Part shown: positions 18,679 through 45,893 of the stretch, piece after piece | How the letters are laid out: every line of letters begins with the position of its first letter | Numbering within the stretch: the first letter of the stretch is position 1 | NCBI GenBank assembly: GCA_030614785.1 | Contig: JAUWTJ010000005.1 | Span: forward strand, 4,144 to 68,143 | Reading direction: 5' to 3' | Source: Alphaproteobacteria bacterium | GTDB lineage: Bacteria > Pseudomonadota > Alphaproteobacteria > M2410 | DNA length: 64,000 bases | The notes under the pieces: model-generated | The model's database searches: none | The model's input: the letters and a program-made list of their open reading frames with translations, nothing else | Told to the model about the DNA's origin: nothing | Translations under genes and position numbers: made by a program

Positions 18679-19848
18679 CTAAAACATGAAGTCCGAGCGA
18701 ACGTCATAGGCGTTGCGTGCCGACCAACGCTCTACCATGTCCTTGAAATCCTGGTCGTTGGCCGATGGCAATATGATCTTGAGGGTCACATATTGATCGC
18801 CGTATAGCTTTTCCTCGCCTTTTGGGGCGCGCGGCAGGCCTCGGCCCTTGAGGCGCAGGGCTGTATCGGCATTGGATCCAGGAGGGATTGTCATCGCAAC
18901 CGGCCCGTCAAGGGTCGGGACCATAACCCTGGCACCCAAAACAGCCTCATCAACCGCAACGGGCAGGATCAGATAAATGTCGTCGCCTTCACAGGTGAAA
19001 TGGCGGTGTGGCTCTACGTTGATCTCAAGAATGGCATCGCTGGCCGCGCCTGACTTGCCATGGCCTTTAAGCCGAATTTGCTGGCCGGACTTGACGCCGG
19101 CGGGAATTTTCACATCAAGCCGCTTGCCGCTCGGCAGTTTAACGCGCCGGGACGTTCCGCGTGCCGATTCCTCAAAACTGATCGAAAGATTGTAGCGGCT
19201 GTCCTGCGGCGTTGATACGTCGGCAGGTTCCGGCTGTGGCTTTGGACCAGCCTGTGGCTTTGGATTTGCCTGGGTCTTTGGCTCCGGCTTTGCGGTCGCA
19301 TCAGCGCTTGCCTGCGCCTCCGACCTGGTCGTAGACTTCGCTGCCTCCTGAGCCTTTGCTTTCAGTCCGGCGAACAGATCATTGAAGACTTCGTCTGCAC
19401 GAGGACGACGTGCCCGTTCCTCGCCACTTTTTTCAGAAGCCGCTTCTTGTCGACCCCAGCTGTACGCCTTGAAGTCTTCACCCTGTTTTTTTTGTGGTTT
19501 GCTGTGATCGCCTCCAGCGCGCGCGCGCGCTGCCCAGGCATCTGCGGCGCTTTTATGGTCGGACCGTGCTTCGCGCTGTTTGGTGCGGGCATTGGCAGAA
19601 CGTGAATTTTGACGGCGCATGATCGGCAGGCCATTGGCATCAATCTCACCACTGTCAAACTGCGAGCGTTTGGCCAAATCACCGAGGATGTCATAGGCGG
19701 CGTTGATTTCCTGAAATGTATTGGCAATGAGGCCGCTGTCACCGGCGACATCGGGATGATATTGCTTGGCGAGATTGCGAAATGCGGATTTGACGTCCTG
19801 CGGTGAGGCCTTTCGGTTAACGCCAAGAACTGTATAGGGGTCGCGCAT
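18679..19848 (-). CDS. J-domain protein (DnaJ N-terminal domain plus DnaJ C-terminal substrate-binding domains, no zinc finger)
   Basis: J domain DPYTVLGV...HPD, then a charged low-complexity linker, then a DnaJ C-terminal-like beta domain. Start chosen at MRDPY (AAAGAG RBS); two longer in-frame starts are possible. Confidence 0.75.
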   Translation of the reverse strand: MRDPYTVLGVNRKASPQDVKSAFRNLAKQYHPDVAGDSGLIANTFQEINAAYDILGDLAKRSQFDSGEIDANGLPIMRRQNSRSANARTKQREARSDHKSAADAWAARARAGGDHSKPQKKQGEDFKAYSWGRQEAASEKSGEERARRPRADEVFNDLFAGLKAKAQEAAKSTTRSEAQASADATAKPEPKTQANPKPQAGPKPQPEPADVSTPQDSRYNLSISFEESARGTSRRVKLPSGKRLDVKIPAGVKSGQQIRLKGHGKSGAASDAILEINVEPHRHFTCEGDDIYLILPVAVDEAVLGARVMVPTLDGPVAMTIPPGSNADTALRLKGRGLPRAPKGEEKLYGDQYVTLKIILPSANDQDFKDMVERWSARNAYDVRSDFMF

Positions 19849-20058
19849 AACACTCTTTTGGTTCATTGCCGGTGCCCGCTTGCCTCTGGAAGGCGCAGAC
19901 ATGCCGGTAAAGTCGGATTCCTGATCCACGAAGAATAGGAAATCCGCCATACCAAACAGTTAAAGGCGAGAGGTTTTGTTTAGAATGTGTTGTCCATAAC
20001 GCCGCGCGATCAAAGACCCGCCGGGATCACAGCCACTCTGTTTCAGGAAAATCGGGAC

Positions 20059-20532
20059 CTAGACGAATTTTACTTCGAGAATTTCGTACGACCTGCCGCC
20101 CCCGGGCGTGTTGACGTCAACGGAATCGCCGGTTTCCTTGCCGATAAGTGCGCGCGCTATCGGGGAGGAAATTGCAATGCGGCCTTCCTTCACGTCGGCC
20201 TCGTGATCGCCGACAATCTGATACTGGCTTTCTTCTTCGGTATCCTCATCAACCACACGGACGGTTGCGCCGAATTTCACAGTGTCGCCGTCAAGGGTAG
20301 CAGGGTCGATGACCTGGGACCGTGAAATCAGGTCTTCAAGTTGCATCACACGGGTCTCAATGAACGACTGACGCTCTTTGGCAGCGTGATATTCAGCGTT
20401 TTCCGACAGGTCGCCATGCTCGCGCGCCTCGGCAATCATCCGGATGGTCTCCGGCCGATCAATGGTTTTCAGCTGTTTCAGCTCACTTTCGAGGGCTTCG
20501 TGCCCGGACGCCGTCATTGGAACTTTTTCCAT
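20059..20532 (-). CDS. greA: Transcription elongation factor GreA
   Basis: Full-length GreA-like sequence of 157 aa. Confidence 0.95.
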
Positions 20533-20664
20533 AGTCTCGCTACCTGATTATATTAAAGACAACACGTCCTCACGCCCGACTATTCGGGCAATTTATATTA
20601 CCTATGCGTGTGAAGAATTTCTACTTCGCGGTCGAACGACGCTTACGCCGCATATATCTGGCCT

Positions 20665-23600
20665 TTAAGTATACGATTGCAAGGGCCGAACTTCAAGGGT
20701 TGTAACATCCTCTTCGCAAATTGCCCGCGCCGCCACCTTGGCGGCTGCCATGGTCGTATAATATGGAATGCGCTGCTCCAGCGTGGTGCGCCGGATGGTC
20801 ATGGAATCCTGCAGGGATTTTGCACCCTCCGTGGTGTTGAAGACCAGATCGACCTCGCCGTTCTTCATCGCGTCGACGATGTGAGGCCGGCCTTCAAAAA
20901 CCATGTTGACGGTTTCCGCCTCTATCCCGGCCGCGCACAGGGTTTCGGCGGTGCCACTCGTGGCAATGAGCCTGAAGCCTTTTTCTTTAAGGCTGCGCGC
21001 GGCTGCCAGGATCCCCGTCTTGTCTCGTTCCTTGAGCGAGATGAAAACGGTTCCTGATGTTGGCAAGGTAACGCCGCCGCCGAGCTGGCTTTTGGCGAAG
21101 GCGGCGACGAACCGGGTATCGATCCCCATGACCTCGCCGGTCGAGCGCATTTCGGGGCCCAGTATTGTATCCACGCCTGGAAAGCGCGCGAAGGGGAAGA
21201 CGGCTTCCTTGACTGTGACGTGCCCCTCATTGTGAGTGGTCAGATCAAAATCTGTCAGCTTTTCGCCGGCCATCAGCCGCGCTGCGATTTTGGCAATCTG
21301 CACGCCGATGCTCTTGGCGACGAACGGCACGGTGCGGCTGGCGCGCGGATTAACCTCAAGCAGATAGATGTCATCTCCCTTGATGGCAAATTGCACATTC
21401 ATCAGGCCGATGACATTGAGTTTGAGGGCAAGCGCTTCGGTCTGGCGTTTCAGCTCTTCGATAATTTCAGGGCGCAGGGACCAGGGCGGCAGGGAACATG
21501 CTGAATCGCCGGAATGAACCCCGGCCTCTTCAATGTGCTCCATGATTCCGGCGACAAAGACCTGGGCGCCGTCACACAGGCAATCTACATCAACTTCAAT
21601 GGCGTCCTGAAGATAACCGTCGATGAGATAACCATCGGCAAAAGCCGGGATATCGCCCGACGCTGTCGCCATACGCTGGAGATAGCGATCCAGTTCATCT
21701 TCGGAGCGCACGATTTCCATGCCCCGCCCGCCAAGCACGTAGGAGGGCCTGATGACCACGGGAAAGCCGACCTCAAGCGCCGCCGCGGATGCCTCTTGCG
21801 GTGAATAGGCCAGAGCGTTCTTCGGCTGGCGCAGATCAAGCTCCTGCAACAGCTTCTGGAAGCGCTCGCGGTCTTCGGCCAGATCGATGGCATCAGGCGA
21901 CGTTCCCAGGATCGGAATACCTTCGTCCTCAAGGCGTTGGCAAAGCTTGAGCGGTGTCTGACCGCCAAGCTGAACGATGACGCCGTGCAGCGTGCCGTTC
22001 TTCTGCTCTGTATGAATGAGCTCCAGCACATCCTCTGCGGTCAGCGGCTCAAAATAAAGCCGGTCCGACGTATCATAGTCGGTCGAGACCGTCTCTGGAT
22101 TGCAGTTCACCATGATGCTCTCCAGGCCGGCATCGCTCATGGCATAGCAGGCGTGACAGCAACAATAGTCAAATTCGATGCCCTGACCGATCCGGTTGGG
22201 ACCGCCGCCCAGAATGATGACTTTCCTGGCGTCTGTCGGCGCACTTTCGCATTCCGGCTCATCGCTAAAGGCCGGCGTCTCATAGGTCGAATACATGTAA
22301 GGCGTTTTGGCCTCAAACTCTGCCGCACACGTATCAATCCGCTTGTAGACGGGCCGCACGTTCAGGGCCTGGCGATGGGCGGTGACTTCTTTTTCGGATT
22401 TGCCGGTCAGTTTGGCGAGCCGCATATCCGAAAAGCCCGCTGACTTGAGGCGGCGCATGGCAACGGCGTCGGACGGCAGTCCTTCGGCCCGGACCGTGGC
22501 TTCTTTATCCATCAGGTCTCTGATCTGGTCGAGGAACCAGGGGTCAACGAAGCAGGCCTTGTGAATGTCTTCATTCGACATGCCAAGACGCATGGCCTGG
22601 GCGATAACCACGAGGCGGTCCGGCGAAGGCTTGGCAAGCATGGCAAAAATGGCAGCGGTGTCATTGTCTTCGCCGAGGCCAGGAATGTCGTATTCGTCAA
22701 GCCCGGTGAGCCCGGTTTCGAGGCTGCGAATGGCCTTTTGCAGACTTTCCTGGAACGTCCGGCCGATGGCCATGCTTTCCCCAACCGACTTCATGGAGGT
22801 CGTCAGGTGCGGCTCGGCGCCAGGGAATTTTTCAAATGCAAAGCGAGGGATTTTGGTGACGACATAGTCAATGGTCGGCTCGAATGAGGCAGGCGTCACG
22901 CCTGTGATATCATTGAGCAATTCATCGAGTGTGTAGCCGACCGCCAGCTTGGCCGCAACGGTGGCGATGGGGAAACCCGTCGCCTTGGACGCCAGCGCCG
23001 AGCTCCGCGACACACGCGGGTTCATCTCGATAACCACCAGCCGCCCGTCTTTGGGATTGACCGCAAACTGCACATTCGAGCCACCGGTTTCAACACCGAT
23101 CTCGCGCAGCACTGCAATCGAGGCGTTGCGCATGATCTGATATTCTTTGTCGGTCAACGTCAGGGCAGGGGCGACAGTCACTGAATCGCCGGTATGAATG
23201 CCCATCGGGTCGATGTTCTCGATGGAGCAGATGATGATGCAATTGTCCGCAGAGTCGCGAACCACTTCCATTTCATACTCTTTCCATCCGACCACGGATT
23301 CTTCAATCAGAACCTCGGTCGTTGGCGAGGCATCAAGGCCGCGCTCGACAATCGCGTGAAATTCCTCAACATTATAGGCGATGCCGCCACCCAGCCCGCC
23401 CATGGTGAACGAGGGCCGCATGATGGCGGGCAGGCCGATCTTTTCAAAAGCCAGCTCGGCTTCGGCGCGGTTGTGCGCCAGCATCGAGCGCGGGCTTTCG
23501 AGGCCGATTTTGTCCATGGCATTGCGGAACAGCTGACGGTCCTCGGCCTTGTCGATGGCTTCCTTCTTGGCACCAATCATCTCAACGCCGTATTTCTCCA

Positions 23601-23922
23601 GCACGCCCATTTTGGCAAGGCTCAGCGCCGTGTTCAATGCTGTCTGGCCGCCCATGGTCGGCAGCAGTGCATCGGGGCGCTCTTTTTTAATGATCTTGGC
23701 AACAAACTCCGGCGTGATCGGCTCGATATAGGTGGCATCAGCCATCTCCGGATCAGTCATGATCGTCGCCGGGTTCGAGTTCACCAGAATAATCCGGTAC
23801 CCCTCTTCCTTCAGCGCCTTGACCGCCTGCGTCCCCGAATAATCAAACTCGCACGCCTGGCCAATAACAATCGGGCCGGCGCCAATAATCAGGATACTTT
23901 CTATGTCGGTTCTTTTGGGCAT
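20665..23922 (-). CDS. carB: Carbamoyl-phosphate synthase large subunit
   Basis: 1085 aa with duplicated ATP-grasp halves and an MGS-like C-terminus. Confidence 0.97.
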
Positions 23923-24639
23923 CTAATCTCCGAAGAAAAATAGTCTTATTGCTTTGATTGCAAGCTTGGCAACTTCTTCAAGTGCCGCCTTGCTGAATAC
24001 TTTGGATACTCTGCGAAGGCCTGCGAGCAATTTAGTTTCGACAAACTGGCGTGTTACGGAGTCACCGGACTCTAGCTTGGTAATACCTTCATCCAAATTG
24101 GACAGTATTTCATTACGTTCTTCTTGATGATGCTCTGCGTAGCCGTTGTCCTTACGGATTTCATCTCTTGCCTTATTCAAGCAGGAGACCATTTCGCCGT
24201 AGCCGCTGCGAGATCTGTCAACAGGAAGTGGGGTCCAGTGCTCATCAGACGAGGTATCGACCGGTGGAGTTACTTTACCCGTTGCCTCTACTTGGAGACT
24301 GCTCAGTGTAAGGCCGGAGGCGGATTGGCTTGAACGCATCAGCAAGTATTGGGATACATCTGATTTAGGATTTTCCTCTCGATCCTGAACCGATTTGATC
24401 CCAGCACCAGTTATCGAGACTAGCGTTTTCGAGATTTCTTCAATGAAATTCCATTCAACAAGGTGACTCTTCTCGAGGTTCCGAACTGTCGTCTCAAGAA
24501 AATTGGATGTGACGTCATACGAAATGAGGTCTGCAATATCATCCGTACCGAAGTGTTTGGCATCATGATTTGCCAGTTGATCCAAAAGCTCAACTAACAC
24601 TGCAACCTCAACATCGGATATTTTTGTGCCAAGCCCCAT
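23923..24639 (-). CDS. Hypothetical protein (lower-GC ORFan wedged between carA and carB)
   Basis: 238 codons at about 43-46% GC by hand count, against about 58-60% in the flanks. Its stop TAG directly abuts the carB ATG, and its own ATG lies 3 nt after the carA stop, with GGAG inside the carA 3' end. No recognised domain. Confidence 0.55.
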   Translation of the reverse strand: MGLGTKISDVEVAVLVELLDQLANHDAKHFGTDDIADLISYDVTSNFLETTVRNLEKSHLVEWNFIEEISKTLVSITGAGIKSVQDREENPKSDVSQYLLMRSSQSASGLTLSSLQVEATGKVTPPVDTSSDEHWTPLPVDRSRSGYGEMVSCLNKARDEIRKDNGYAEHHQEERNEILSNLDEGITKLESGDSVTRQFVETKLLAGLRRVSKVFSKAALEEVAKLAIKAIRLFFFGD

Positions 24640-24642
24640 CCT

Positions 24643-25773
24643 CTACTCCATCATTCCGACAAAGCGGTCAAAGAGGTAGTGGGAGTCTTGCGGGCCGGGG
24701 GAGGCTTCGGGGTGGTACTGGACCGAGAAGATCGGTTTGCTGTCAACCATGAGGCCGCAATTGGTGCCATCAAACAGCGAAAGGTGACTTTCCTTGACGC
24801 CTGACGGAAGAGTATCGGCGTCGACCGTGAAGCCGTGGTTCATCGAGGTAATCTCGACCTTGTCTGTGGTGAGGTCCTTGACCGGATGATTGGCGCCGTG
24901 GTGGCCCTGATGCATTTTTTTGGTCTTGGCGCCGAGCGCCAGCGCCAGCATCTGGTGTCCGAGGCAGATGCCGAACATCGGCTTGCCGCTTTCAATCAGT
25001 TTTTGAATTTCCGGCACGACATATGTCCCCGTTGCCGCCGGATCGCCGGGACCATTGGAAAGGAAGATGCCGTCGGGATCCATGGCCAGGATGGCCTCGG
25101 CGCTGGTTGAGGCGGGGACAACGGTCACATCACAACTGAGCCCGGCCAGATCGCGCAGGATGTTGCGCTTGATGCCGAAGTCCATGGCGACCACATGGCG
25201 CTTTGATGCGCCTCGCGCGCCAAAGCCTTCATTCCAGACCCACGGCGTCTCGTCCCACTTGTAGGTTTCGGTCGTGGTCACTTCTTTGGCCAGGTCCATG
25301 CCTTCAAGTCCGGCAAAAGCTTTTGCTTCCGCCTGCAGGGCCGCGATATCAAAAACGCCGTCAGGCGCATGGGCGATGACGGCGTTTGGCATTCCTTTTT
25401 CGCGGATCAGCCGGGTCAGCGCCCGGGTATCGACCCCTGAAATGGTAATAATATTCTGCGCTTTCAGCCAGCTGTCGAGATCGGCGGCCGACCGGTAATT
25501 GGAAGGTTCCGTAATATCGGTCTTGAGGACCGCGCCGCGCACTGCGGATGCCGTGCCCTCGAGGTCCTCGTCATTGGTGCCGACATTGCCGATATGGGGG
25601 AAGGTGAAGGTGATGATCTGGCCTGCATAGGACGGATCGGTCAGGATTTCCTGATAACCGGTGATGGCGGTGTTGAAACAGACCTCGCCAACGGCGGAGC
25701 CGGTGGCCCCCAGACCGTGGCCTTTGAGGAGTGTGCCGTCTGCCAGAACAAGGAGTGCGGTAGGTCTGCTCAT
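24643..25773 (-). CDS. carA: Carbamoyl-phosphate synthase small subunit
   Basis: Glutamine amidotransferase triad region (GICLGHQ); start taken at [13 protein letters not shown]. Confidence 0.95.
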
Positions 25774-26076
25774 TTGGTGCGCGCTCCAAAAAGGGCTTCG
25801 CAACCCGCGTGTCGCGGCTTTGCGAGTTTGATTTTCGTGTCCGGCATGCGGACCCCCTTCGACAAAGAGAAGTTCTAAATTTTTGATGAAAAAGCCCGGG
25901 CAGGGCCTAAACGCGCCGGACCCTATGCCAAAGCGTTTGCACGGTCAAGACTTCAATTTTCAAAAAACATCGTTTAAAAACAATGGCTTATGTCAGAGAA
26001 AATAATTGCGGATGGCTGCCGGATGGACTAGGGTCCGGTACTTCGCCAAATGGCGCCAAAAGGCAGAAGGTGATTC

Positions 26077-26529
26077 ATGCGAGAAGAATTAAACGAGGCG
26101 CTTAAGACAGCATTGAAGGCGCAGGACAAGCGCCGTCTTTCGACCCTCAGACTCATCCTGGCGGCCATCAAGGACCGCGATATTGCAGCCCGTTCAGAAG
26201 ATCGCAATGAAGGGGTTTCAGATGAGGAAATCCTGTCGATCCTTCAGAAGATGGTCAAGCAGCGCAAGGAGTCCTCGACCATGTATGAAGAGGCCGGCCG
26301 TCTCGAGCTGGCCGAGCAGGAGCGCGAGGAAATCGCCATCATTGATGAATATCTGCCGCAGCAGATGAGCGACGATGAAGTGCGCACCGCTACGCAAGAG
26401 CTGGTGAAAGACATTGAAGCTGCTGGCCTGAAAGACATGGGCCGCACCATGGCCGCCCTCAAGGAACGCTACGCCGGCGTGATGGATTTCAAGGTAGCGT
26501 CAGCGACCGTCAAAGAGCTTTTGGGCTAG
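26077..26529 (+). CDS. GatB/YqeY domain-containing protein
   Basis: Typical YqeY sequence (LKxALKAxDKxRLSTLRLILAAIKDRD). Confidence 0.85.
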   Translation: MREELNEALKTALKAQDKRRLSTLRLILAAIKDRDIAARSEDRNEGVSDEEILSILQKMVKQRKESSTMYEEAGRLELAEQEREEIAIIDEYLPQQMSDDEVRTATQELVKDIEAAGLKDMGRTMAALKERYAGVMDFKVASATVKELLG

Positions 26530-26533
26530 TCCA

Positions 26534-27001
26534 TTACTTCACTTCATAAATCTCATACCCGACACCATCCTCGGTGACGTGGCCGACGCCGACAGCGACG
26601 ATGCCGTTAAGCCAGGAATATTTCTCTGATCCCGTCTCAAAGATCGGCGCGGTTCTGAAGTAATAGCTCGACGGGTCAGGCAGCCCGTTTGAACGATCAA
26701 ACAGAGCCGCGAACTGTTCCGGCGGCACAGTAATCCGGCCCTTGTACTGGACGAAGATATTGGCGCCGTCGTCGGTCTGGAGCGTGGCTCTCACATCGAG
26801 ATTGAGGATACCGAGACCAGGGTTGAGGAGAAACCAGTCTGCACCCGATGGCAGAATGGTTCCCTTGAGCCTGGGACCCTCGAAACTGCCGCCGGTGACA
26901 TCCGCGATGGCGCGCATCCCCATCGCACCGTTGCCGATATCCACGGTCGGCTTGAGGCTTGCCTGAAAATTCATCAGAAACTCGGATTGCAGTCCACTCA
27001 T
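26534..27001 (-). CDS. DUF3237-family protein
   Basis: 155 aa beta-rich protein; the family assignment is from memory. Confidence 0.6.
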   Translation of the reverse strand: MSGLQSEFLMNFQASLKPTVDIGNGAMGMRAIADVTGGSFEGPRLKGTILPSGADWFLLNPGLGILNLDVRATLQTDDGANIFVQYKGRITVPPEQFAALFDRSNGLPDPSSYYFRTAPIFETGSEKYSWLNGIVAVGVGHVTEDGVGYEIYEVK

Positions 27002-27064
27002 GGCATAATCTCCCTAATTGTTTCGCGAATGTTAGACTCCGCCTGCATTTTTGGGAAGCGCTGC

Positions 27065-27093
27065 TTGACTCTTTCGGCAGGGCGCACTATTTA
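27065..27093 (+). promoter_or_regulatory. Candidate sigma-70 promoter upstream of dnaG (TTGACT-N17-TATTTA)
   Basis: Hexamers read directly from the sequence about 200 bp upstream of the dnaG start; weak evidence. Confidence 0.2.
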
Positions 27094-27296
27094 ATCTGCT
27101 GCCGGCGAGAGATGCGGTAGACCCTTTGTGGCACCGACACCAATTGGCCAGACGGCAATAGAAGACTGAGAGTCTATTGATTTTTTGAACCCTGGCGGGA
27201 GACTGCCGGGCGTTTAGTGTCGTTTATACCTTTGAAATAATGGGATATTTATTGGTCGATTGGAAAAAAAGAGCCTCGCTGAATGAGTTTTCGCCC

Positions 27297-29222
27297 ATGA
27301 GTTTTCCGGGACATTTTCTGGATGAATTGCGCACCCGCCTGTCGATTACCGACGTGGTGGGCAAACGCGTGACGTGGGACCGGGCAAAATCCAATGCCCG
27401 GCGCAAGGATTACTGGGCCTGCTGTCCGTTTCATTCAGAAAAATCCCCCTCTTTCCATGTCGATGAAACCAAAGGGTTTTATCACTGCTTCGGCTGCGGC
27501 GCGCACGGCGACATTGTCGGGTTTGTCATGAGTCAGGATAATCTGTCCTTCATCGAGGCGGTCGAGCGGCTCGCCGGAGATGCCGGGATGACGATGCCCG
27601 AGCAAACGCCCCGGATGCGGGCAGAAGAAGAAAAGCGCGCCGGTCTCGTCGAGATCATGGAAATGGCAACGCAATTCTTTGAAAAAATTCTGCATCAGTC
27701 GAGCGGCGAGGTGGCCAGGAGCTATCTTGACGGGCGCGCCCTCAGTCCAAAAACCTGGGCCACCTTCCGCATCGGTTATGCACCCGATGCGCCTTCGGCT
27801 CTTTCGGACCATCTCATTGCGCAAGGCATCAAGCCGGACCAGTTGATAGAGGCCGGGCTTTCCCTTGAAAGCGACCGTGGCGGCCTGCGTGACCGGTTCC
27901 GGGGCCGCATTATTTTCCCCATCATGGATGGTCGCAGCCGCGTCATTGCTTTTGGCGGACGCGCGATGTCGTCTGAAGCCAAAGCCAAATATCTGAATTC
28001 ACCCGAGACGCCTTTGTTCCACAAGGGCCGTACCCTGTATAATATTGCGCCGGCGCGCCGCGCTGCTGCGGACCTGTCGCGCTCGGACAATGTGCACCGC
28101 CTGCCGGGCGTTGTTGTGGCCGAAGGCTATATGGATGTCATCGCATTGTCGCTGGCCGGCATCACGCAGTCGGTCGCACCGCTCGGCACCGCCATGACCG
28201 AAGAACAAATTCTGCTGGCCTGGAAGATGTGCCCCGAGCCTGTACTTTGTTTTGACGGCGATGCTGCCGGGATCAAGGCTGCGGGCCGGGCGATGGAACG
28301 TGCCTTGCCGCTGTTGCGTCCGGGACATTCGCTCGGGTTTGTATTGTTGCCAGGCGGCCTGGATCCGGATGACCTCATTCGCGAAAAGGGTTCCGAAGCC
28401 ATGCGGGCGATCCTGGCAAAGCCAATCCCGCTAATTGATTTTCTCTGGCGACGGGAGGTCGAAGAGGGTCCGTTTGATACGCCGGAGAAGCGTGCGGCTC
28501 TGGAAGAGCGGCTTGACTATGCAACAGGACAAATTCGCGATGACAAGGTTCAGCGGTTCTACCGCCAGGCTTTGCGCGACCGGCTCTACAAACATTTCAA
28601 CACACGCAAACCAACCGCAGCGGCATCGCGGCCAGGGCGCGGTGAAACTTTCGGACGTCCGAAACAGCCTCAGGGCATTTCAGCCGCGCTCAGAAAATCC
28701 TCTTTGGCCCAGGCCAGCAGACTGTCCGGCGGCCTGGGCGCAGGGCGTGATCTTGATCTTTGCGTGGAGCGGGAGCGGGTTCTGGTTTCGTCAATCTTGC
28801 GATTTCCTGAGCTCCTCGATGCCCATGGCGAGAGTTTCGCGGAAATGCCCCTTGAGCGTCCCGAACTTGACAGGGTAAGGCGGGATATTCTGGATGTTGC
28901 CGCCTCCGGCGTGGCGCTTGACATGAACGCGCTGCGCAACCATTTGAAGGATAGAGGCGCGACGCATCTGGTCGATCAATTGCTGCGCCATGCGGTCCAG
29001 AAGCACGCCCACATATTCAGTAAAGACGCACAGCTGAAAGACGCAGAAGAAAATTGGTCTCACGTCCTCGCGCTTCATCGCGAGATGCTCTCTTTGAAAC
29101 GAGAGGCAAAAGAGGCCGAGGTTCTGTTTCAACAAGATGGCAGTAGTGAGAATTGGCAGCGCCTGCAGCGAATTCAAACTCAGTTACAGCAGGCATCAGT
29201 CATTCAATCGGGAGACGGCTAG
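27297..29222 (+). CDS. dnaG: DNA primase
   Basis: Zinc ribbon CCPFHSEKSPSF...CFGCG, TOPRIM domain; the start aligns with the MSFPGHFLDEL N-terminus. Confidence 0.95.
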   Translation: MSFPGHFLDELRTRLSITDVVGKRVTWDRAKSNARRKDYWACCPFHSEKSPSFHVDETKGFYHCFGCGAHGDIVGFVMSQDNLSFIEAVERLAGDAGMTMPEQTPRMRAEEEKRAGLVEIMEMATQFFEKILHQSSGEVARSYLDGRALSPKTWATFRIGYAPDAPSALSDHLIAQGIKPDQLIEAGLSLESDRGGLRDRFRGRIIFPIMDGRSRVIAFGGRAMSSEAKAKYLNSPETPLFHKGRTLYNIAPARRAAADLSRSDNVHRLPGVVVAEGYMDVIALSLAGITQSVAPLGTAMTEEQILLAWKMCPEPVLCFDGDAAGIKAAGRAMERALPLLRPGHSLGFVLLPGGLDPDDLIREKGSEAMRAILAKPIPLIDFLWRREVEEGPFDTPEKRAALEERLDYATGQIRDDKVQRFYRQALRDRLYKHFNTRKPTAAASRPGRGETFGRPKQPQGISAALRKSSLAQASRLSGGLGAGRDLDLCVERERVLVSSILRFPELLDAHGESFAEMPLERPELDRVRRDILDVAASGVALDMNALRNHLKDRGATHLVDQLLRHAVQKHAHIFSKDAQLKDAEENWSHVLALHREMLSLKREAKEAEVLFQQDGSSENWQRLQRIQTQLQQASVIQSGDG

Positions 29223-29308
29223 CTTGAGTACGAGGCATCTTCGAAGTCATTGGACTTCAAGGGTGGACGAAGCTGTCGGATCAGGAAACTAAAGAGCGGA
29301 GATTAACC

Positions 29309-31882
29309 GTGGCGACCAAAGTAGCACAGACTAAAAAGACAGCCAAAAAGGTAGTGGCAAAGACGAAGACCGTTGCCAAAACAGCGACAAAGGCAGCCAC
29401 CAAAAAGGCCGCGCCAAAGACGGCAAAAAAAGCTGCGGCCAAAACAGCAGCGAAGCCTGCTGGCAAAAAAGTGGTTGCCAAAACGGCTGTTAAAACAGCG
29501 AAGAAATCAGTGACGAACACAAAAATAGCAACGAAAGTCAAAACTGCGGCAAAGACCGCAGTGAAAGCCGCCGCTCCGGTCGTCAAAAAGACGACCCAAA
29601 AGACTGCGAAGAAGGCGGCGGTAAAGGCAGCCCCCAAAACACCTAACAAAACAGCCAAAGCGGCTGCGGGCAAGAAAACCGCAACCAAAGCTCAGGAGAA
29701 AACGGCAAAAGTGGAAGTAGAGAGTAAGAAGAAGGCGGTTTCACAGAAAACGGCCACCAGGAAAACCGCCACCAAAAAAACGGTTGCCAAAAAAACTGCC
29801 ACCAAAAAAACAACCAAAGCAAAGGCTGAAGCGTCGGCGAAATCTCCCAAGGTCGCAAAAGGTGCAAGTGCCGAGAAAAGTCAAGTGGACGCGGCGGACC
29901 GCCCGCTACTCGATATGTCTGACAGCGGCGTCAAGAAGATGATCGCTGCAGCCAAGAAGCGCGGCTACGTCACCTATGATGAGCTGAACGAGGTTGTTCC
30001 GTCGGACGAGGTATCTTCTGAAAAGATTGAAGATATTATGTCGATGCTTTCTGAAATGGGCATCAATGTCATCGAAGCTGATGATGCTGAGGAAGTCGAA
30101 AGTGGTTCCGAGGCAGGGACAGACATTGCCACGAAAACCGGGACAGCGGTTACAGCCAAGCCCAAGCCGACCACCACCCTTGATCGCACGGACGATCCCG
30201 TCCGCATGTATCTGCGTGAAATGGGGACCGTTGAGTTGCTCTCGCGCGAAGGCGAGATTGCCATCGCCAAGCGCATTGAGGCCGGACGCGAAACCATGAT
30301 TGGCGGCCTGTGCGAAAGCCCGCTGACCTTTGAAGCAATTATCGTATGGCGCGACGAACTCAATGAAGGAAAAGTTCTTCTGCGTGAGATCATTGACCTC
30401 GACGCGACCTATGGCGCTGGCCCTGAAGGGCAAGCCAAGAAGCGTGCACTTGAGGCCGAGAATGCTGCCAACCTGGCAAAACTGACAGGCGATTCGCCCG
30501 GTGCCCCGGACGGGATTCCCGGCGCAAAACCGGCAGCTGAGCCTGGCAAGGAAGGTGAAGAAGGCGCGGCCAAAACTGAAGGCACCGATGACGATGATGC
30601 AGAGGAAGAAGCAACCTTGTCGCTTGCGGCAATGGAAGCAGCTCTGAAGCCTCAGGTCTTTGAGGAATTCGACCAGATCGCAGCAAGTTACAAGAAGCTT
30701 CGCAAACTGCAGGAAGCGCTCGTTGAGGCCGTCCTCAATAATCAGACCCTGACGCCAAGCCAGGAGCGTCGCTACAAGAAATTGAAGGCGGAGGTTATTG
30801 AATACGTCAAGAACCTGCACCTCAACAACAACCGGATCGAAGCGCTTGTCGATCAGCTCTATGGCATCAATCGTCGGATGGTATCCCTTGAAGGCAAACT
30901 GATGCGCATGGCCGACGCTCACGGCGTTCCTCGTCAGGAGTTCCTGAAGCAATATCTCAACAATGAGCTGGACCCACACTGGTCGCGCCGTGTGTCTCGT
31001 TTGGCCGGTCGGGGCTGGAAAGAATTCATCAAGGAAGAGAAAGATCAGGTCGACGAGATCCGTGAGGATATCCAGACTGTTTCTCAGGAAGTTGGCGTTG
31101 AGATCACCGAATTCCGCCGGATCGTAAACACAGTTCAAAAGGGCGAGCGCGAGGCACGCCAGGCCAAGAAGGAAATGGTCGAGGCCAATCTTCGTCTCGT
31201 GATTTCGATCGCCAAAAAATACACCAATCGCGGCCTCCAGTTCCTCGATCTCATTCAGGAAGGTAATATCGGCCTCATGAAAGCGGTCGACAAGTTTGAA
31301 TACCGTCGCGGTTACAAGTTCTCGACCTACGCCACATGGTGGATCCGTCAGGCAATTACCCGGTCCATCGCTGATCAGGCGCGCACGATCCGTATTCCGG
31401 TTCACATGATCGAGACCATCAACAAGCTGGTTCGCACCTCGCGGCAGATGCTGCATGAAATTGGCCGCGAACCAACACCGGAAGAGCTTTCAGAAAAGCT
31501 CGCCATGCCGCTCGAAAAAGTGCGCAAGGTTTTGAAGATTGCCAAGGAACCAATTTCTCTCGAGACGCCCATTGGTGATGAAGAAGACAGTCATCTGGGT
31601 GATTTCATCATGGACCCCAATGCGATCTTGCCAATTGACGCGGCCATTCAGTCCAATTTGAGAGAAACAACGACGCGGGTGCTCGCGTCCCTGACCGCAA
31701 GGGAGGAGCGTGTGCTGCGCATGCGTTTCGGTATAGGGATGAATACTGACCATACTTTGGAGGAAGTCGGTCAGCAGTTCTCGGTAACACGCGAACGTAT
31801 TCGTCAAATCGAGGCAAAGGCGCTGAGGAAACTCAAGCACCCGAGCCGGTCCCGTAAACTCAGGAGTTTCCTGGATAACTAA
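29309..31882 (+). CDS. rpoD: RNA polymerase sigma factor RpoD (sigma-70) with a Lys/Ala/Thr-rich, histone H1-like N-terminal insertion of about 185 aa
   Basis: Conserved regions 1.1 through 4.2 are present (PLLDMSD...YVTYDELN; [50 protein letters not shown]; ...[19 protein letters not shown]). The N-terminus begins MATKV as usual, but KTA/KKA repeats follow for about 185 residues before region 1.1. GTG start. Confidence 0.93.
29330..29880. repeat. Imperfect tandem coding repeats (AAA/AAG-ACN-GCN units) encoding the KA-rich segment of rpoD
   Basis: Visible periodic aaaac(a/g)gc(n) units; they generate a spurious antisense ORF at 29281-29688. Confidence 0.7.
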
Positions 31883-31909
31883 GTTGTTATCTCGTGCGTT
31901 GGTACACAA

Positions 31910-32260
31910 ATGCTTTTAACAATGATGAAGGCCAAGCTTCACCGAGCTGTGGTCACCCAAACTGATATGCACTACGAAGGGTCCATCTCCATTGATATGG
32001 ATCTTCTTGATGCTGCCGGAATTCTGCCTCATGAACAGGTTGATGTACTGAACATCAACACCGGTACCCGCTTTACGACCTATGCCATTGAGGCAGAGCG
32101 GGGGTCGAAAACCTTCGGTATCAATGGCGCGGCCGCCCGCCTGGCAGAACCCGGCGACCGCATCATTGTGGTGGCCTATGGTCAGCTGGAAGCCGAAAAG
32201 GCTCGCAATTACGCACCGACCGTGGTCTGTTTGGACGAAGATAACACCATCGTTCAATAA
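31910..32260 (+). CDS. panD: Aspartate 1-decarboxylase
   Basis: [29 protein letters not shown] matches the PanD N-terminus and self-cleavage region. Confidence 0.9.
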
Positions 32261-32307
32261 GGCCGCCGTTCAATGAGTTGCCTTGAACACCAGGGGAGAA
32301 ACAACAC

Positions 32308-33213
32308 ATGGAACTGGTCGCAGACGGATTGAAATTCCCCGAGGGACCCATTGCAATGAGCGACGGGTCGATCATTCTCGTCGAAATCGCGCGGGGCACA
32401 CTGACCCGGGTTTTGCCTGATGGCGGGACGCAGGTCATTGTCCAGCTTGGCGGCGGCCCGAACGGTGCGGCCATGGGCCCCGATGGCGCAATTTATGTCT
32501 GCAACAATGGCGGCTTCACATGGATCGAGGCAGGCGACAGACTAATTCCGGGTGATGAGGCGGGCGATTATTCCGGCGGGCGCATCGAGCGCGTTGATCT
32601 TGCAACGGGCAAGGTCGAAACCCTCTACACAGAATGCGACGGCAATCCACTCAAAGGCCCGAACGATATCGTCTTCGATAAAGAGGGCGGCATGTGGTTC
32701 ACCGATCACGGCAAGGCGCATGGCCGTCTGCGCGACCGGGGCGCAGTCTTCTATGCAAAACCCGATGGCAGTTCAATTACGCAGATGGTGTTCCCGATGG
32801 AAGCGCCCAACGGCATAGGTCTCTCTCCGGATGAGGACTTCCTTTATGTCGCCGAAACACCAACCGCGCGGCTGTGGAAATTCAAAATCAGCGCGCCGGG
32901 ACAAATAGAGTCGCAAGGCCCCTTCACAGGGGAATGTATCGCTGGCATGGGAGGCCATCAGTACTTTGACTCTCTTGCCGTGGACGCCGAGGGCAATATC
33001 TGTGTCGCGACGATCATCAACGGCGGCATTACATCCATTTCACCCGATGGAAAAACCGTTCGCCATATCCCCACCGAGGATGGCCTGACCACCAACATCT
33101 GTTTTGGCGGTGGCGACCTGAAGACAGCTTACATCTGCCTCTCCTCGACAGGGCAATTGGTCAAAACCACATGGGACGTCGCCGGCTTGCCGCTGAATTT
33201 CCTCAACACCTGA
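32308..33213 (+). CDS. SMP-30/gluconolactonase/LRE-family protein
   Basis: Beta-propeller-type sequence with the N-terminal LxFPEGP motif. Confidence 0.8.
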   Translation: MELVADGLKFPEGPIAMSDGSIILVEIARGTLTRVLPDGGTQVIVQLGGGPNGAAMGPDGAIYVCNNGGFTWIEAGDRLIPGDEAGDYSGGRIERVDLATGKVETLYTECDGNPLKGPNDIVFDKEGGMWFTDHGKAHGRLRDRGAVFYAKPDGSSITQMVFPMEAPNGIGLSPDEDFLYVAETPTARLWKFKISAPGQIESQGPFTGECIAGMGGHQYFDSLAVDAEGNICVATIINGGITSISPDGKTVRHIPTEDGLTTNICFGGGDLKTAYICLSSTGQLVKTTWDVAGLPLNFLNT

Positions 33214-33239
33214 GCGACCGAGCGTACCGCAATTGTGCT

Positions 33240-33968
33240 TTAGTTCAGCTCAAAGGTGATGGTGACACTGGCACTGATCTGGCTCTCGCCGACAGCGATA
33301 GCAACAGAGCTCATGCTCTCGGCCTTCATTCTGGCTTGCCTTGGTTGCGGCGTGCCGCTGTGTTGCTCCTGGAAGGTCAGGATTTTGCCAAGACCAATTT
33401 CTGCAGTTTCCGCGTAGAGGGCGGCTTTCCGTTTGGCATCCAGGATCGCGTTTATTCGCGCCTTGTCGACAAGCGGCTCTGGATCAGAAAAGCCAAAGGA
33501 GATCCCGTTCATGGCGTTGGCACCATCGCCAACGGCGGTATCGAGGATCTTGCCGAAACGATCAAGGTCACGAACAATGACATGAACCTGATTTGACACA
33601 CGGTATCCGTCGATCCGGTTTTCTCTGTAGGAGGATCCAACCCGGTTTTTCGCATAGCGCGGGGAAACATCAAACCGGGAGGTCTGGATGTCTTTTTCCT
33701 TGATGCCGGCTTTTTTTAAACTGCTGAGAAGTGTCGCCATCTTCTGATTATTTTCGGCAAGGGCGGCCGTTGCGGTCTCGGCTTCGGACAGAACGCCGAG
33801 GTTAATCGTGGCAATATCAGGTTTGCCGGTTGCAATCCCGTTGCCCGAAACCGTCATCGTGCGGCTGGGGGCGCCGTCCTCGGTGGCTGCCAGGGCAGGG
33901 GCGGCAGCGAGGACAAATGCCAGCGCGCCGACGAGTGAGAGTCTGGTGATTGAGACAGAGTTCAACAT
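33240..33968 (-). CDS. SIMPL-domain protein (DUF541, periplasmic)
   Basis: Signal peptide followed by the characteristic SIMPL N-terminal region (TMTVSGNGIATGKPDIATINLGV); start taken at MLNSVS. Confidence 0.8.
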   Translation of the reverse strand: MLNSVSITRLSLVGALAFVLAAAPALAATEDGAPSRTMTVSGNGIATGKPDIATINLGVLSEAETATAALAENNQKMATLLSSLKKAGIKEKDIQTSRFDVSPRYAKNRVGSSYRENRIDGYRVSNQVHVIVRDLDRFGKILDTAVGDGANAMNGISFGFSDPEPLVDKARINAILDAKRKAALYAETAEIGLGKILTFQEQHSGTPQPRQARMKAESMSSVAIAVGESQISASVTITFELN

Positions 33969-34107
33969 GTTGCTCCTCCGGATATAGGCAAGACTTGTAA
34001 CGTCTCGGCACCATCCTACCGAAGATTTCGGCGACAAAGAGGCCGATGTATGAAATCCGGTACTTTAATTGTCCTGGATCGCCATATGGCACAATCCTGC
34101 CAAAGGC

Positions 34108-44637: not shown

Positions 44638-44663
44638 GGCGGCATGGCGACAAAGCCGGGCAG
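44614..44663 (+). repeat. Left 50-bp direct repeat (46/50 identical to 45844-45893)
   Basis: ctggcaacgcgcgctcactcatagggcggcatggcgacaaagccgggcag. The plus strand encodes the MFS C-terminus LATRAHS*; the minus strand encodes [11 protein letters not shown], identical to the GST C-terminus. Confidence 0.85.
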
Positions 44664-44837
44664 CTCTGGATCCCCCTCACGGGTGTGCAGAGCACACCCT
44701 GCCGGGCAGTGGTGGTCAAGCCACGGGATGACAAGTAATAAATGAATCAAACTCTCACCAGACTGCACGAACCGATTCTTACCCTTGAGAAATTCAGCTT
44801 ATCCACAGACTGTCCGTTGCCTGAGGACTCACGTCAC

Positions 44838-44893
44838 AGAGACTCAACATGCACTTCGTGCACGTGCTCGCTCCGTCCCCAACATTTCGGTAG
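44838..44893 (+). repeat. Internal direct repeat copy 1 (hairpin-containing, about 55 bp)
   Basis: agagactcaacatgcacttcgtgcacgtgctcgctccgtccccaacatttcggtag; contains the palindromic stem (c)gtgcac-ttc-gtgcac(g). Confidence 0.75.
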
Positions 44894-44981
44894 AAATCGG
44901 ACCTTGGAAGCGCTATCAGGACGAAACCTGAAACCGCGACCTCGCGGCAGACCGAAGAAGGAAGATAGTTAAATATATACT

Positions 44982-45009
44982 GTCCCCGAATTTCCGTCCC
45001 CGAATTTCC
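44982..45009 (+). repeat. 14-bp perfect tandem duplication (gtccccgaatttcc x2)
   Basis: Read directly from the sequence. Confidence 0.7.
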
Positions 45010-45282
45010 AGGTCAGTGAATGAAATTGTCTGGAGGGTTCTTGAGCAAGAGCTGGTGTACTGAGCCGCCAAGAGACCGTCCAGCCAATAAACAACCATCT
45101 CTGAACGAGAGTTCAATTGTCAATGTGCTGGTGGGGAATTGCTGTAAGTTGCGGAAAACGATGAGAGAATCTTGGACACTGAGACCGTTTGTTTGAATGC
45201 AAACCAGATTCCCATGTTACATTGGGGTTGATCAGCTTCTGCATGCTTCCCTTGCGACAACGTCAGGAAGTCATGCACGAGT

Positions 45283-45567
45283 GTGAAGTACGCGAATCTG
45301 TTGTCTTTGTCTCGTGGAATGAATGGAAGGATGAGATCGTTGGAAGATTCGACACCTGAAAGTTTGAGGCTAACTATTGTGAAGATGGCAAAATGGTTAG
45401 TGATTGGATTGTTGGTTTGCGTATTTCTTTTCTGGAGTGGCAATGAAGTCGCGGGAGCGATCTTTGGTGTGTGTATTCTGATTGCTGGCGGGATGATTGG
45501 TAAAACCTGGTATGACATACGGGGCTTGTCCAGCGAAGATGAGTCCGATGACGAGCGGATACAATAG
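45283..45567 (+). CDS. Putative small 2-TM membrane protein with acidic C-terminal tail (60-94 aa depending on start)
   Basis: Hydrophobic helices WLVIGLLVCVFLFW and AIFGVCILIAGGMIG followed by SSEDESDDE; alternative ATG at 45385; weak ribosome-binding site. Confidence 0.3.
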   Translation: MKYANLLSLSRGMNGRMRSLEDSTPESLRLTIVKMAKWLVIGLLVCVFLFWSGNEVAGAIFGVCILIAGGMIGKTWYDIRGLSSEDESDDERIQ

Positions 45568-45679
45568 CTGGTTATATACGGTTGTGTGTCCCTGACTTAG
45601 ATACCCAGTTCAATCTTCTGGCAAGGCTGGTGCCCAAGTGGTGAACCTTCTGTGTGCTACAAGTCCGTGAGCTTCGGTT

Positions 45680-45732
45680 AGAGACTCAACGTGCACTTCG
45701 TGCACGTGCTCGCTCCGACCCCATATCGGTAG
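45680..45732 (+). repeat. Internal direct repeat copy 2 (hairpin-containing)
   Basis: agagactcaacgtgcacttcgtgcacgtgctcgctccgaccccatatcggtag; about 90% identical to copy 1; 8-bp stem with a 3-nt loop. Confidence 0.75.
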
Positions 45733-45843
45733 TTGATCTGTTGTTTACTTCACTCGATTTCGTCTGATCACCCGGCTGACGGTCGTTCTGAGACTCTCGG
45801 GCGGCGTCATCGCCTCGGGCTGAGCCATCTTTATCGTGCGCTC

Positions 45844-45893
45844 CTGGCAGCTCGCGCTCACTCATAAGGTGGCATGGCGACAAAGCCGGGCAG
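45844..45893 (+). repeat. Right 50-bp direct repeat
   Basis: ctggcagctcgcgctcactcataaggtggcatggcgacaaagccgggcag; overlaps the 3' end of the GST gene on the minus strand. Confidence 0.85.

Follow-up and report, generated by a model that had tools for sequence, protein, structure and literature searches.

Highly divergent alleles of an undescribed gene, and an empty site, at the carA-carB junction of a species-level population of Alphaproteobacteria

Replacement flexible genomic islands have been described in aquatic prokaryotes (Lopez-Perez, Martin-Cuadrado & Rodriguez-Valera 2014; PMC4033161). They lie at the same genomic position in all strains, with content that is wholly different yet functionally equivalent within a species; they carry no integrase or insertion sequence (IS) at their borders, and their exchange takes place through homologous recombination within conserved flanks, with peaks of mostly synonymous substitution at the borders (PMC4033161). 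Separately, open reading frames (ORFs) have been reported between carA and carB, which encode the two subunits, small and large, of carbamoyl-phosphate synthase (CPS). Pseudomonas aeruginosa PAO1 has a carA-orf-carB-greA operon (Lu, Kwon & Abdelal 1997, as cited in PMC4619228) and Xanthomonas citri the arrangement carA-orf-carB-greA-rpfE, with a middle ORF of 444 bp; the two middle ORFs are of unknown function, are co-transcribed with carA and carB, and are unrelated to each other (PMC4619228). Here we describe a 64,000-nucleotide stretch of DNA from an alphaproteobacterium (contig JAUWTJ010000005.1 of assembly GCA_030614785.1; hereafter the window, meaning the whole stretch analysed), in which a 238-codon ORF that we call X (positions 23923-24639, minus strand) lies between carA and carB. 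The locus is best read as a one-gene 'replacement flexible islet', and we put at about one in two the probability that X is a dispensable accessory gene, swapped by recombination in a one-gene 'replacement' slot, and probably of conflict type rather than a component of CPS.

The evidence for such a slot comes from one species-level population, with flanks 93-98% identical at the nucleotide level, in which we found three alleles that are 27-34% identical to each other, together with one empty site. The locus L083 matches the window at 97.9% of nucleotides over 8.0 kb up to position 24639 and at 94.5% from 23925 onward, and its CarA and CarB are 98% and 99% identical in amino acid sequence to those of the window. 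Nucleotide similarity between the two stops at 24639 and resumes at 23925, the exact start and stop of X, and the allele that lies between (P0003, bounded by the junctions TAG-AGGA-ATG and TAA-ATG) is 29% identical to X and has no nucleotide similarity to it. The locus L082, with a CarB 98% identical in amino acid sequence and a flank 93% identical in nucleotide sequence, carries an allele (P0002) that is 34% identical to X overall, its N-terminal half being unrelated and its C-terminal half 46% identical; the last ~75 nucleotides of this allele are 93% identical to the window (23925-24000), which points to a recombination breakpoint inside the cassette.

The fourth haplotype, L115, was found via an exact look-up of YqeY. 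Its flanks are 96.9% and 95.4% identical to the window in nucleotide sequence and its CarA and CarB 98.4% and 99.2% identical in amino acid sequence, and it has an empty site, carA-TAA-CGA-ATG-carB, in which the carA/carB junction reads …GGAATAACGAATGCCCAAACG…. Because this empty allele exists, X is dispensable. Exact look-ups of the CarA, DUF3237 and GreA of the window returned no further alleles. In metagenome contigs of the same or related populations (L084, L120, L121, L123 and L125) the assemblies break within or beside carA or X, which is the outcome expected from strain-level heterogeneity at the slot.

The borders of the slot differ from the rest of the flanks. Far from the slot the haplotypes are 96-100% identical, and in the last ~400 nucleotides of carA and the first ~350 nucleotides of carB they are 87-95% identical. 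These border differences are almost all synonymous, with 54 synonymous and 4 non-synonymous in carB between the window and L115 and a ratio of 45:2 in another comparison, and the peak of synonymous differences in carB falls at codons ~40-120. Across 55 pairs drawn from 11 car-linked loci the identity of X showed no relation to that of the host CarB (r = 0.05), and the divergence of alleles within the population (27-34% identity) matches that between hosts with CarB N-termini only ~70% identical (22-36%).

The slot thus shares with the replacement islands a constant locus and conserved borders, between which the insert alleles are 27-34% identical in amino acid sequence or absent, as well as the synonymous peaks at the borders (54:4 and 45:2). 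Like them it has no integrase, transposase or att-type repeats, for which the stop/start junctions, with spacers of 0-4 nucleotides, leave no room. It differs from them in that the insert is a single 0.7-kb gene rather than a multi-gene cluster and an empty allele also exists; in that the cargo is a cytoplasmic-looking protein with a predicted winged helix and four-helix bundle rather than a set of genes for the biosynthesis of surface structures; and in that the slot lies inside an essential operon, to which it appears from its sequence to be translationally coupled on both sides. With the Pseudomonas-type operon the window has in common the order carA, ORF, carB and greA on one strand, an order found also in L127; the comparison is one of layout. 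We know of no report of strain-level hypervariability in the middle ORFs of P. aeruginosa or X. citri.

We propose that very old alleles of one family, together with the empty allele, would circulate both within one species-level population and among distant lineages. Alleles would be exchanged by homologous recombination, for which the conserved 3' end of carA and 5' end of carB would serve as anchors, and recombination through these flanks would leave peaks of synonymous substitution at both borders.

The features of the locus, in the order in which they are read on the minus strand from carA to greA and with the positions of the window, are as follows.

24643..25803, minus strand: carA, carbamoyl-phosphate synthase small subunit, given as the longest ORF, with its stop codon TAG at 24643-24645
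24640..24651, minus strand: carA/X junction, with GGAG in the carA end, the carA stop TAG and the spacer AGG, leading into the X ATG
23923..24639, minus strand: X, 238 amino acids, undescribed family, putatively swapped cassette, with ATG at 24637-24639 and TAG at 23923-23925
24316..24621, minus strand: predicted winged-helix domain of X (helix-helix-helix-beta-beta) plus two helices, residues 7-108, the most variable part of the family
24238..24315, minus strand: linker of X, residues 109-134, of low confidence (disordered) in the AlphaFold2 model
24214..24237, minus strand: signature WTPLPVDR of X, residues 135-142, corresponding to the family motif WxPLP[ILV][DE]R
23932..24201, minus strand: conserved four-helix bundle of X, residues 147-236, as predicted from the alignment and models
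23925..24000, minus strand: last ~75 nucleotides of X, with the apparent recombination breakpoint relative to the L082 allele and the GGAG for carB
23920..23925, minus strand: X/carB junction, with the X TAG abutting the carB ATG (0-nucleotide spacer), a putative termination-reinitiation junction
20665..23922, minus strand: carB, carbamoyl-phosphate synthase large subunit, with ATG at 23920-23922
20059..20532, minus strand: greA, 132 nucleotides downstream of carB

The gene order on the minus strand is therefore carA-X-carB-greA. The longest carA ORF begins at TTG 25803 (386 amino acids), and gene callers prefer ATG 25773 (376 amino acids). Read on the minus strand, the carA/X junction is ...ATGGAGTAG-AGG-ATGGGG..., with a spacer of 3 nucleotides, and a Shine-Dalgarno-like GGAG for X lies six nucleotides upstream of its ATG, within the coding end of carA. 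The X/carB junction reads ...GGAGATTAG-ATGCCC..., with a spacer of 0 nucleotides, and the Shine-Dalgarno-like GGAG of carB is furnished by the final codons of X (GGAGAT-TAG-ATG). We found no promoter-like or terminator-like sites within X on its own strand, matches in the region being no commoner than in shuffles, and Rfam and tRNA scans of the whole window gave no match. X would be transcribed from the carA promoter, without a promoter or terminator of its own, and would probably be translated by coupling, with its Shine-Dalgarno sequence within the carA end, its stop on the carB ATG, and its own end giving the Shine-Dalgarno sequence of carB.

The base composition of X sets it apart from its neighbors. 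Its G+C content (GC) is 0.462, against 0.591 for carA and 0.578 for carB, and at third codon positions (GC3) the values are 0.45 against 0.71 and 0.70, respectively. Relative to all 717-nucleotide segments across the 64 kb (mean 0.557, standard deviation 0.028) the GC of X has a z of -3.45, and 0.06% of these segments have a GC as low as that of X. Members of the family elsewhere lie 10-20 GC points under their flanks in nearly all loci compared, for example 0.49 vs 0.68 in L075, 0.44 vs 0.66 and 0.61 in L098, and 0.46 vs 0.63 in L127. An earlier note on this DNA, made from the letters alone, had described X as packed between carA and carB with spacers of 3 and 0 nucleotides and GGAG in the carA end, and the coordinates and junction readings agree with that description; its estimates of GC (~43-46% vs ~58-60% in the neighbors) are likewise borne out. 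Its suggestions that X relies on the expression signals of carAB and is of foreign or accessory character are supported. The second GC-poorest stretch of the window, at ~44640-45860, where 717-nucleotide segments go down to 0.467, is flanked by one MFS-like and one GST-like ORF and holds short, unconvincing ORFs alone.

Comparison of X with Pfam, NCBIfam, PADLOC and PHROGs gave no match above noise. A word-index search of 5.8 billion proteins with X returned solely X itself, from GCA_048633335.1, and the same kind of search with the family profile returned 5 proteins; a word-index search is unsuited to so divergent a family. When 1.84 billion representatives of 50% identity clusters were scanned exhaustively with HMMER, 326 matched at E ≤ 1e-3, of which 37 also reached E ≤ 1e-10; with few exceptions the matches are 210-270 amino acids long, and they are 23-46% identical to X. 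The protein family of X is therefore new and undescribed, counts no fewer than 326 clusters when grouped at 50% identity, and has no annotation in Pfam, NCBIfam, PADLOC or PHROG.

In a 50-member alignment of this family (A1) residues W135, P137, N165 and G166 are invariant, and L138, R142, A168, R175, P207, L208, F215 and A227 are nearly so, L138 and R142 being kept in at least 90% of members. The family motifs are WxPLP[ILV][DE]R, [DSN]NG[YF]A (the NGYA turn) and PEERN, and the N-terminal half is far more variable across A1 than the C-terminal half. Searches of the 50 members against Pfam, NCBIfam and PADLOC gave no family match, with sub-threshold hits from single members alone, and 10 longer members have no recognizable fused domain. 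A HEPN-like Rx4-6H motif in the PEERN region was considered by eye and rejected, the position of the histidine not being conserved.

An AlphaFold2 model of X, built with A1, has a mean predicted local distance difference test score (pLDDT) of 89. It comprises a winged helix (H-H-H-β-β) at residues 7-76, two further helices that reach residue 108, a linker of low confidence at ~110-140, and, on the C-terminal side, the segment with the WxPLP motif followed by a four-helix bundle at 147-236; the protein, with its winged helix-turn-helix (wHTH) and four-helix bundle, is predicted to be soluble. Modeled alone, the C-terminal domain has a pLDDT of 92.4 and a predicted template modeling score (pTM) of 0.83. 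X is a real gene, given the invariant residues of the family alignment and the mean pLDDT of 89. It had been taken for an ORFan with no recognizable motif, a view that does not survive the 326 representative clusters of the exhaustive HMMER search, the motifs WxPLP[ILV][DE]R, NGYA and PEERN common to the family, and the predicted fold of a winged helix and a four-helix bundle.

Fold searches returned generic relatives. The C-terminal domain matched generic up-down four-helix bundles only (PA2107, YicC, Csp3, Tsi6 and Avd), the whole model matched generic wHTH folds only, a search of BFVD gave nothing below E = 1e-3, and a sequence-profile search of the PDB with the C-terminal domain found no relative. 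The family is acidic, with a median isoelectric point of 4.86 and a median net charge of -6 for the N-terminal domain, and the N-terminal 109 residues of X carry a net charge of -9. The acidity of this domain argues against a classical operator-binding repressor and against binding of duplex DNA. X has the winged helix-turn-helix fold in common with the MarR, PadR and ArsR regulators; it is unlike them in that none of the 50 members scores above the threshold of a Pfam or NCBIfam model and in that the domain is acidic (-9; family -6), and unlike MarR in that an unrelated four-helix bundle stands at the C-terminus rather than the MarR dimerization scaffold. From the models we suggest that the hypervariable acidic winged helix may be a specificity or recognition module, for which a protein or another ligand that is not duplex DNA seems likelier than an operator, and that the conserved four-helix bundle may be a constant output or oligomerization module.

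The nearest representatives of the family that were looked up lie at carA/carB in six of seven cases, as follows.

P0002, locus L082: carA-X-carB
P0003, locus L083: carA-X-carB
P0004, locus L085: carA-X-carB
P0005, locus L086 (732-3462): carA, a 64-amino-acid ORF, a β-carbonic anhydrase (Pro_CA) and the X homologue, with overlapping stops and starts; a low-GC relative
P0006, locus L127/L128: yqeY / carA-X-carB-greA
P0007, locus L125: carA-X-other gene
P0009, locus L126: no link to carA or carB

Carbonic anhydrase supplies bicarbonate, a substrate of CPS. An unbiased scan of metagenomes for a degenerate DNA motif (WEPLPx[DE]R and NG[YF]A, separated by exactly 66 nucleotides) found 26 loci, with carA and/or carB beside X in 13 of the 26 and several of the 13 other contigs too short for car linkage to be judged. 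In ten other abutting loci (eight distinct) the distance from the X stop to the carB ATG is -1 to +3 nucleotides, and the hosts that share this tight spacing have carA/carB only 62-86% identical to those of the window; at the carA/X junction L083 has TAG-AGGA-ATG and L127 an ATGA overlap. In L099 (5377-6057, on a 953-kb contig of a metagenome-assembled genome, MAG) X ends 1 nucleotide before carB and no carA lies within 5.3 kb upstream, indicating that the tie to carB can persist without carA. Members outside car loci have lower profile scores and adjoin, variously, an IS91 transposase, a RelE-like toxin pair, a KAP NTPase, FtsK, or a phage C5-methylase with terminase. In one of them (L111, 2501-3941) a RelE-like toxin gene, an overlapping ORF of 97 amino acids and, 15 nucleotides further downstream, the family member all lie on one strand.

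Among relatives of the host the gene is rare. Eighty species representatives, among them Parvibaculaceae, Hyphomicrobiaceae and Bradyrhizobium, matched a carA query at 66-77% identity, and a family member lies downstream of carA in one of the 80, the Xanthobacteraceae MAG of locus L075. The distance from carA to carB was measurable in 55 relatives; the two genes are adjacent in 5 (11-27 nucleotides), separated by a gap of ~250 nucleotides in 2, and separated by 0.75-5.8 kb in 48. In these 48 species the interval holds miscellaneous genes on both strands (methyltransferases, ferritin-like, ChaN, MFS, ArsR and cupins), and this miscellaneous content led us to reject a defense island in the carA-carB gap of relatives. 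The varied distances and contents indicate that the junction is evolutionarily plastic and that X is sporadic. In the two species whose CarB comes nearest to that of the window (79-80%) the spacer measures ~250 nucleotides (L002, 6140-6376; L006, 7133-7393), and these spacers contain ORFs of 78-86 amino acids that are unrelated to X and non-genic in look. On the question, raised in the earlier note against its own interpretation, of whether X is a well-characterized, widely conserved carA-carB linker of typical GC, the family does prove to be a recurrent linker, and it is uncharacterized, sporadic (1 of 80) and low in GC. Overall the earlier interpretation is partly supported.

We infer that X is probably under frequency-dependent selection of the conflict type, either through an interaction with phages or mobile elements or through immunity, because of its presence/absence polymorphism, its saturated allelic divergence, its low GC, its sporadic distribution, and the occurrence of relatives beside IS91, RelE, KAP NTPase and phage genes; these features speak for neither a CPS subunit nor a regulator of housekeeping type. 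X resembles the hypervariable accessory genes of diversity and defense hotspots, where strain-specific content likewise lies between conserved core genes and where low GC, sporadic distribution and neighbors such as toxin-antitoxin, KAP NTPase, IS and phage genes are also seen. It is unlike defense-hotspot genes in giving no match above noise among 5027 PADLOC models (single hits at E 0.005, not shared among the 50 members), and the slot is unlike a hotspot in holding one gene of one family rather than changing systems, and in lying within an operon rather than between operons. X is also unlike a toxin-antitoxin module in that no cognate partner lies beside it in car loci, where its flanks are carA and carB; the one toxin-antitoxin context, that of the member after the RelE-like pair outside car loci, is not general.

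Several results weigh against a swapped gene of conflict type. Library scans of X and of 50 members found no homology to known defense, immunity or toxin-antitoxin proteins, and X has no enzymatic motif. The C-terminal domain matches generic bundles only, and de novo designed bundles match it at similar Z. The motif scan matched 1 viral contig in 2.9 million, so that the family is essentially absent there, and three family members searched by tblastn had no match in sequenced plasmids or phages. The polymorphism was observed in four haplotypes only, every one from short metagenome contigs. Finally, a pure conflict gene would have no obvious reason to lie at carA/carB in about half of cases, and this location keeps a functional tie to CPS a live option.

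The possibilities listed in the earlier note, an accessory factor of CPS, a selfish gene or a defense gene, still span the hypotheses that we consider live. X might be a factor specific to CPS or its pathway, which would either regulate carAB or bind CarA or CarB and modulate assembly, channeling or allosteric control, and whose amount would track that of the enzyme through co-translation. The tie in position to carA/carB, which is very strong and spans a broad phylogenetic range, with junctions that look coupled, is what such a factor would predict, and the resemblance of the winged helix to MarR, PadR and ArsR regulators, the β-carbonic anhydrase between carA and X in L086, and the carA-orf-carB(-greA) operons of P. 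aeruginosa and X. citri (PMC4619228) point the same way. On the other hand, a sister strain (L115) has a clean empty site, 79 of the 80 related species representatives do without X, with carA and carB directly adjacent in five, and the alleles are 27-34% identical while CarA and CarB are 98-99% and the carA promoter region 97-98% identical, so that there is no co-variation between X and its supposed partners. The winged helix is moreover strongly acidic, which is atypical of an operator-binding repressor, and the members outside car loci, which make up half of the family, are found in mobile contexts; we consider a CPS factor possible but doubtful. The tie to CPS might also be combined with conflict, if X were a guard-type or nutrient-gating defense or immunity module functionally linked to the enzyme. 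Its hypervariable sensor domain would then recognize a factor of a phage or mobile element, and the bundle would act on CarA/CarB or on product flow, throttling the supply of pyrimidines and arginine. This proposal, if true, would explain the conflict-like population genetics and the fidelity to the carA/carB junction together, and X would represent a new class of defense gene, set through translational coupling into a biosynthetic operon that is essential, but we judge it quite improbable.

That X is of no benefit to the host at all, a selfish 'operon wedge' that is expressed for free and spreads by recombination through the conserved flanks, is in our view unlikely. Such a gene could persist if only precise excision or recombinational replacement left the translation of carB intact, and the precise junctions, with the Shine-Dalgarno sequence of carB supplied by X, suit this idea, as do the sporadic distribution, the low GC, the empty allele that shows X not to be needed, and the unrelated ORFs at the same junction in gamma-proteobacteria (PMC4619228). 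However, the motifs and a predicted well-folded two-domain structure are kept across 326 clusters, which implies purifying selection on a function of the protein, several very old alleles stand side by side with peaks of nucleotide differences at the borders, a pattern that resembles neutral parasitism less than it does balancing or frequency-dependent selection, and no mobility gene is present. Presence or absence at a single exact position flanked by highly conserved genes, divergence at both borders that resembles co-conversion, and an N-terminal fold of a nucleic-acid-binding type would also be expected of a free-standing homing-type gene, whose product would cut the empty carA/carB junction and which would be copied in by repair (intron-less homing). 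Yet no library or fold search found a nuclease family (GIY-YIG, HNH, LAGLIDADG and the like) or a catalytic motif, the protein is acidic, car loci account for only half of the family, and the alleles at one site are extremely divergent, all of which makes homing very improbable. Low GC and the lack of database annotation might even have suggested a chance or decaying frame in an expanded intergenic spacer, but this is effectively refuted by the family evidence, with 326 homologous clusters that have invariant residues and a length kept at ~220-260 amino acids, along with confident structure predictions (pLDDT 89 and 92) and apparently coupled junctions.

If X is instead a recombination-swapped accessory gene, as we prefer, the locus offers a minimal and clean case of a strain-variable slot inside an essential operon that is, to judge by its junctions, translationally coupled. 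Alleles in near-identical genomes are as unlike as those across distant lineages, whose host carA/carB are 62-86% identical, or are absent. The locus would thus provide a testable system for the exchange of accessory genes through core-gene flanks and for how translational coupling tolerates cargo, and it raises the testable question of whether the synthesis of pyrimidine and arginine precursors is a battleground in microbial conflicts.

Elsewhere in the window, the start of dnaG is ambiguous (27240-27296), with a longest ORF of 660 amino acids and a called gene of 641 amino acids. The sigma-70 ORF rpoD (29309-31882, plus strand, 857 amino acids, the same in the public gene call) has an N-terminus (window 29309-29900) of ~190 residues of Lys/Ala/Thr-rich repeats (…AKKTAKK…) that is histone H1-like, with an AT skew of 0.6-0.7. 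Positions 19749-34000, which span the carA-X-carB-greA locus, come from a different assembly of the same organism as L001 (contig JAIWCI010000088, GCA_048633335.1), to which they are 99.916% identical, with 12 mismatches in 14.25 kb.

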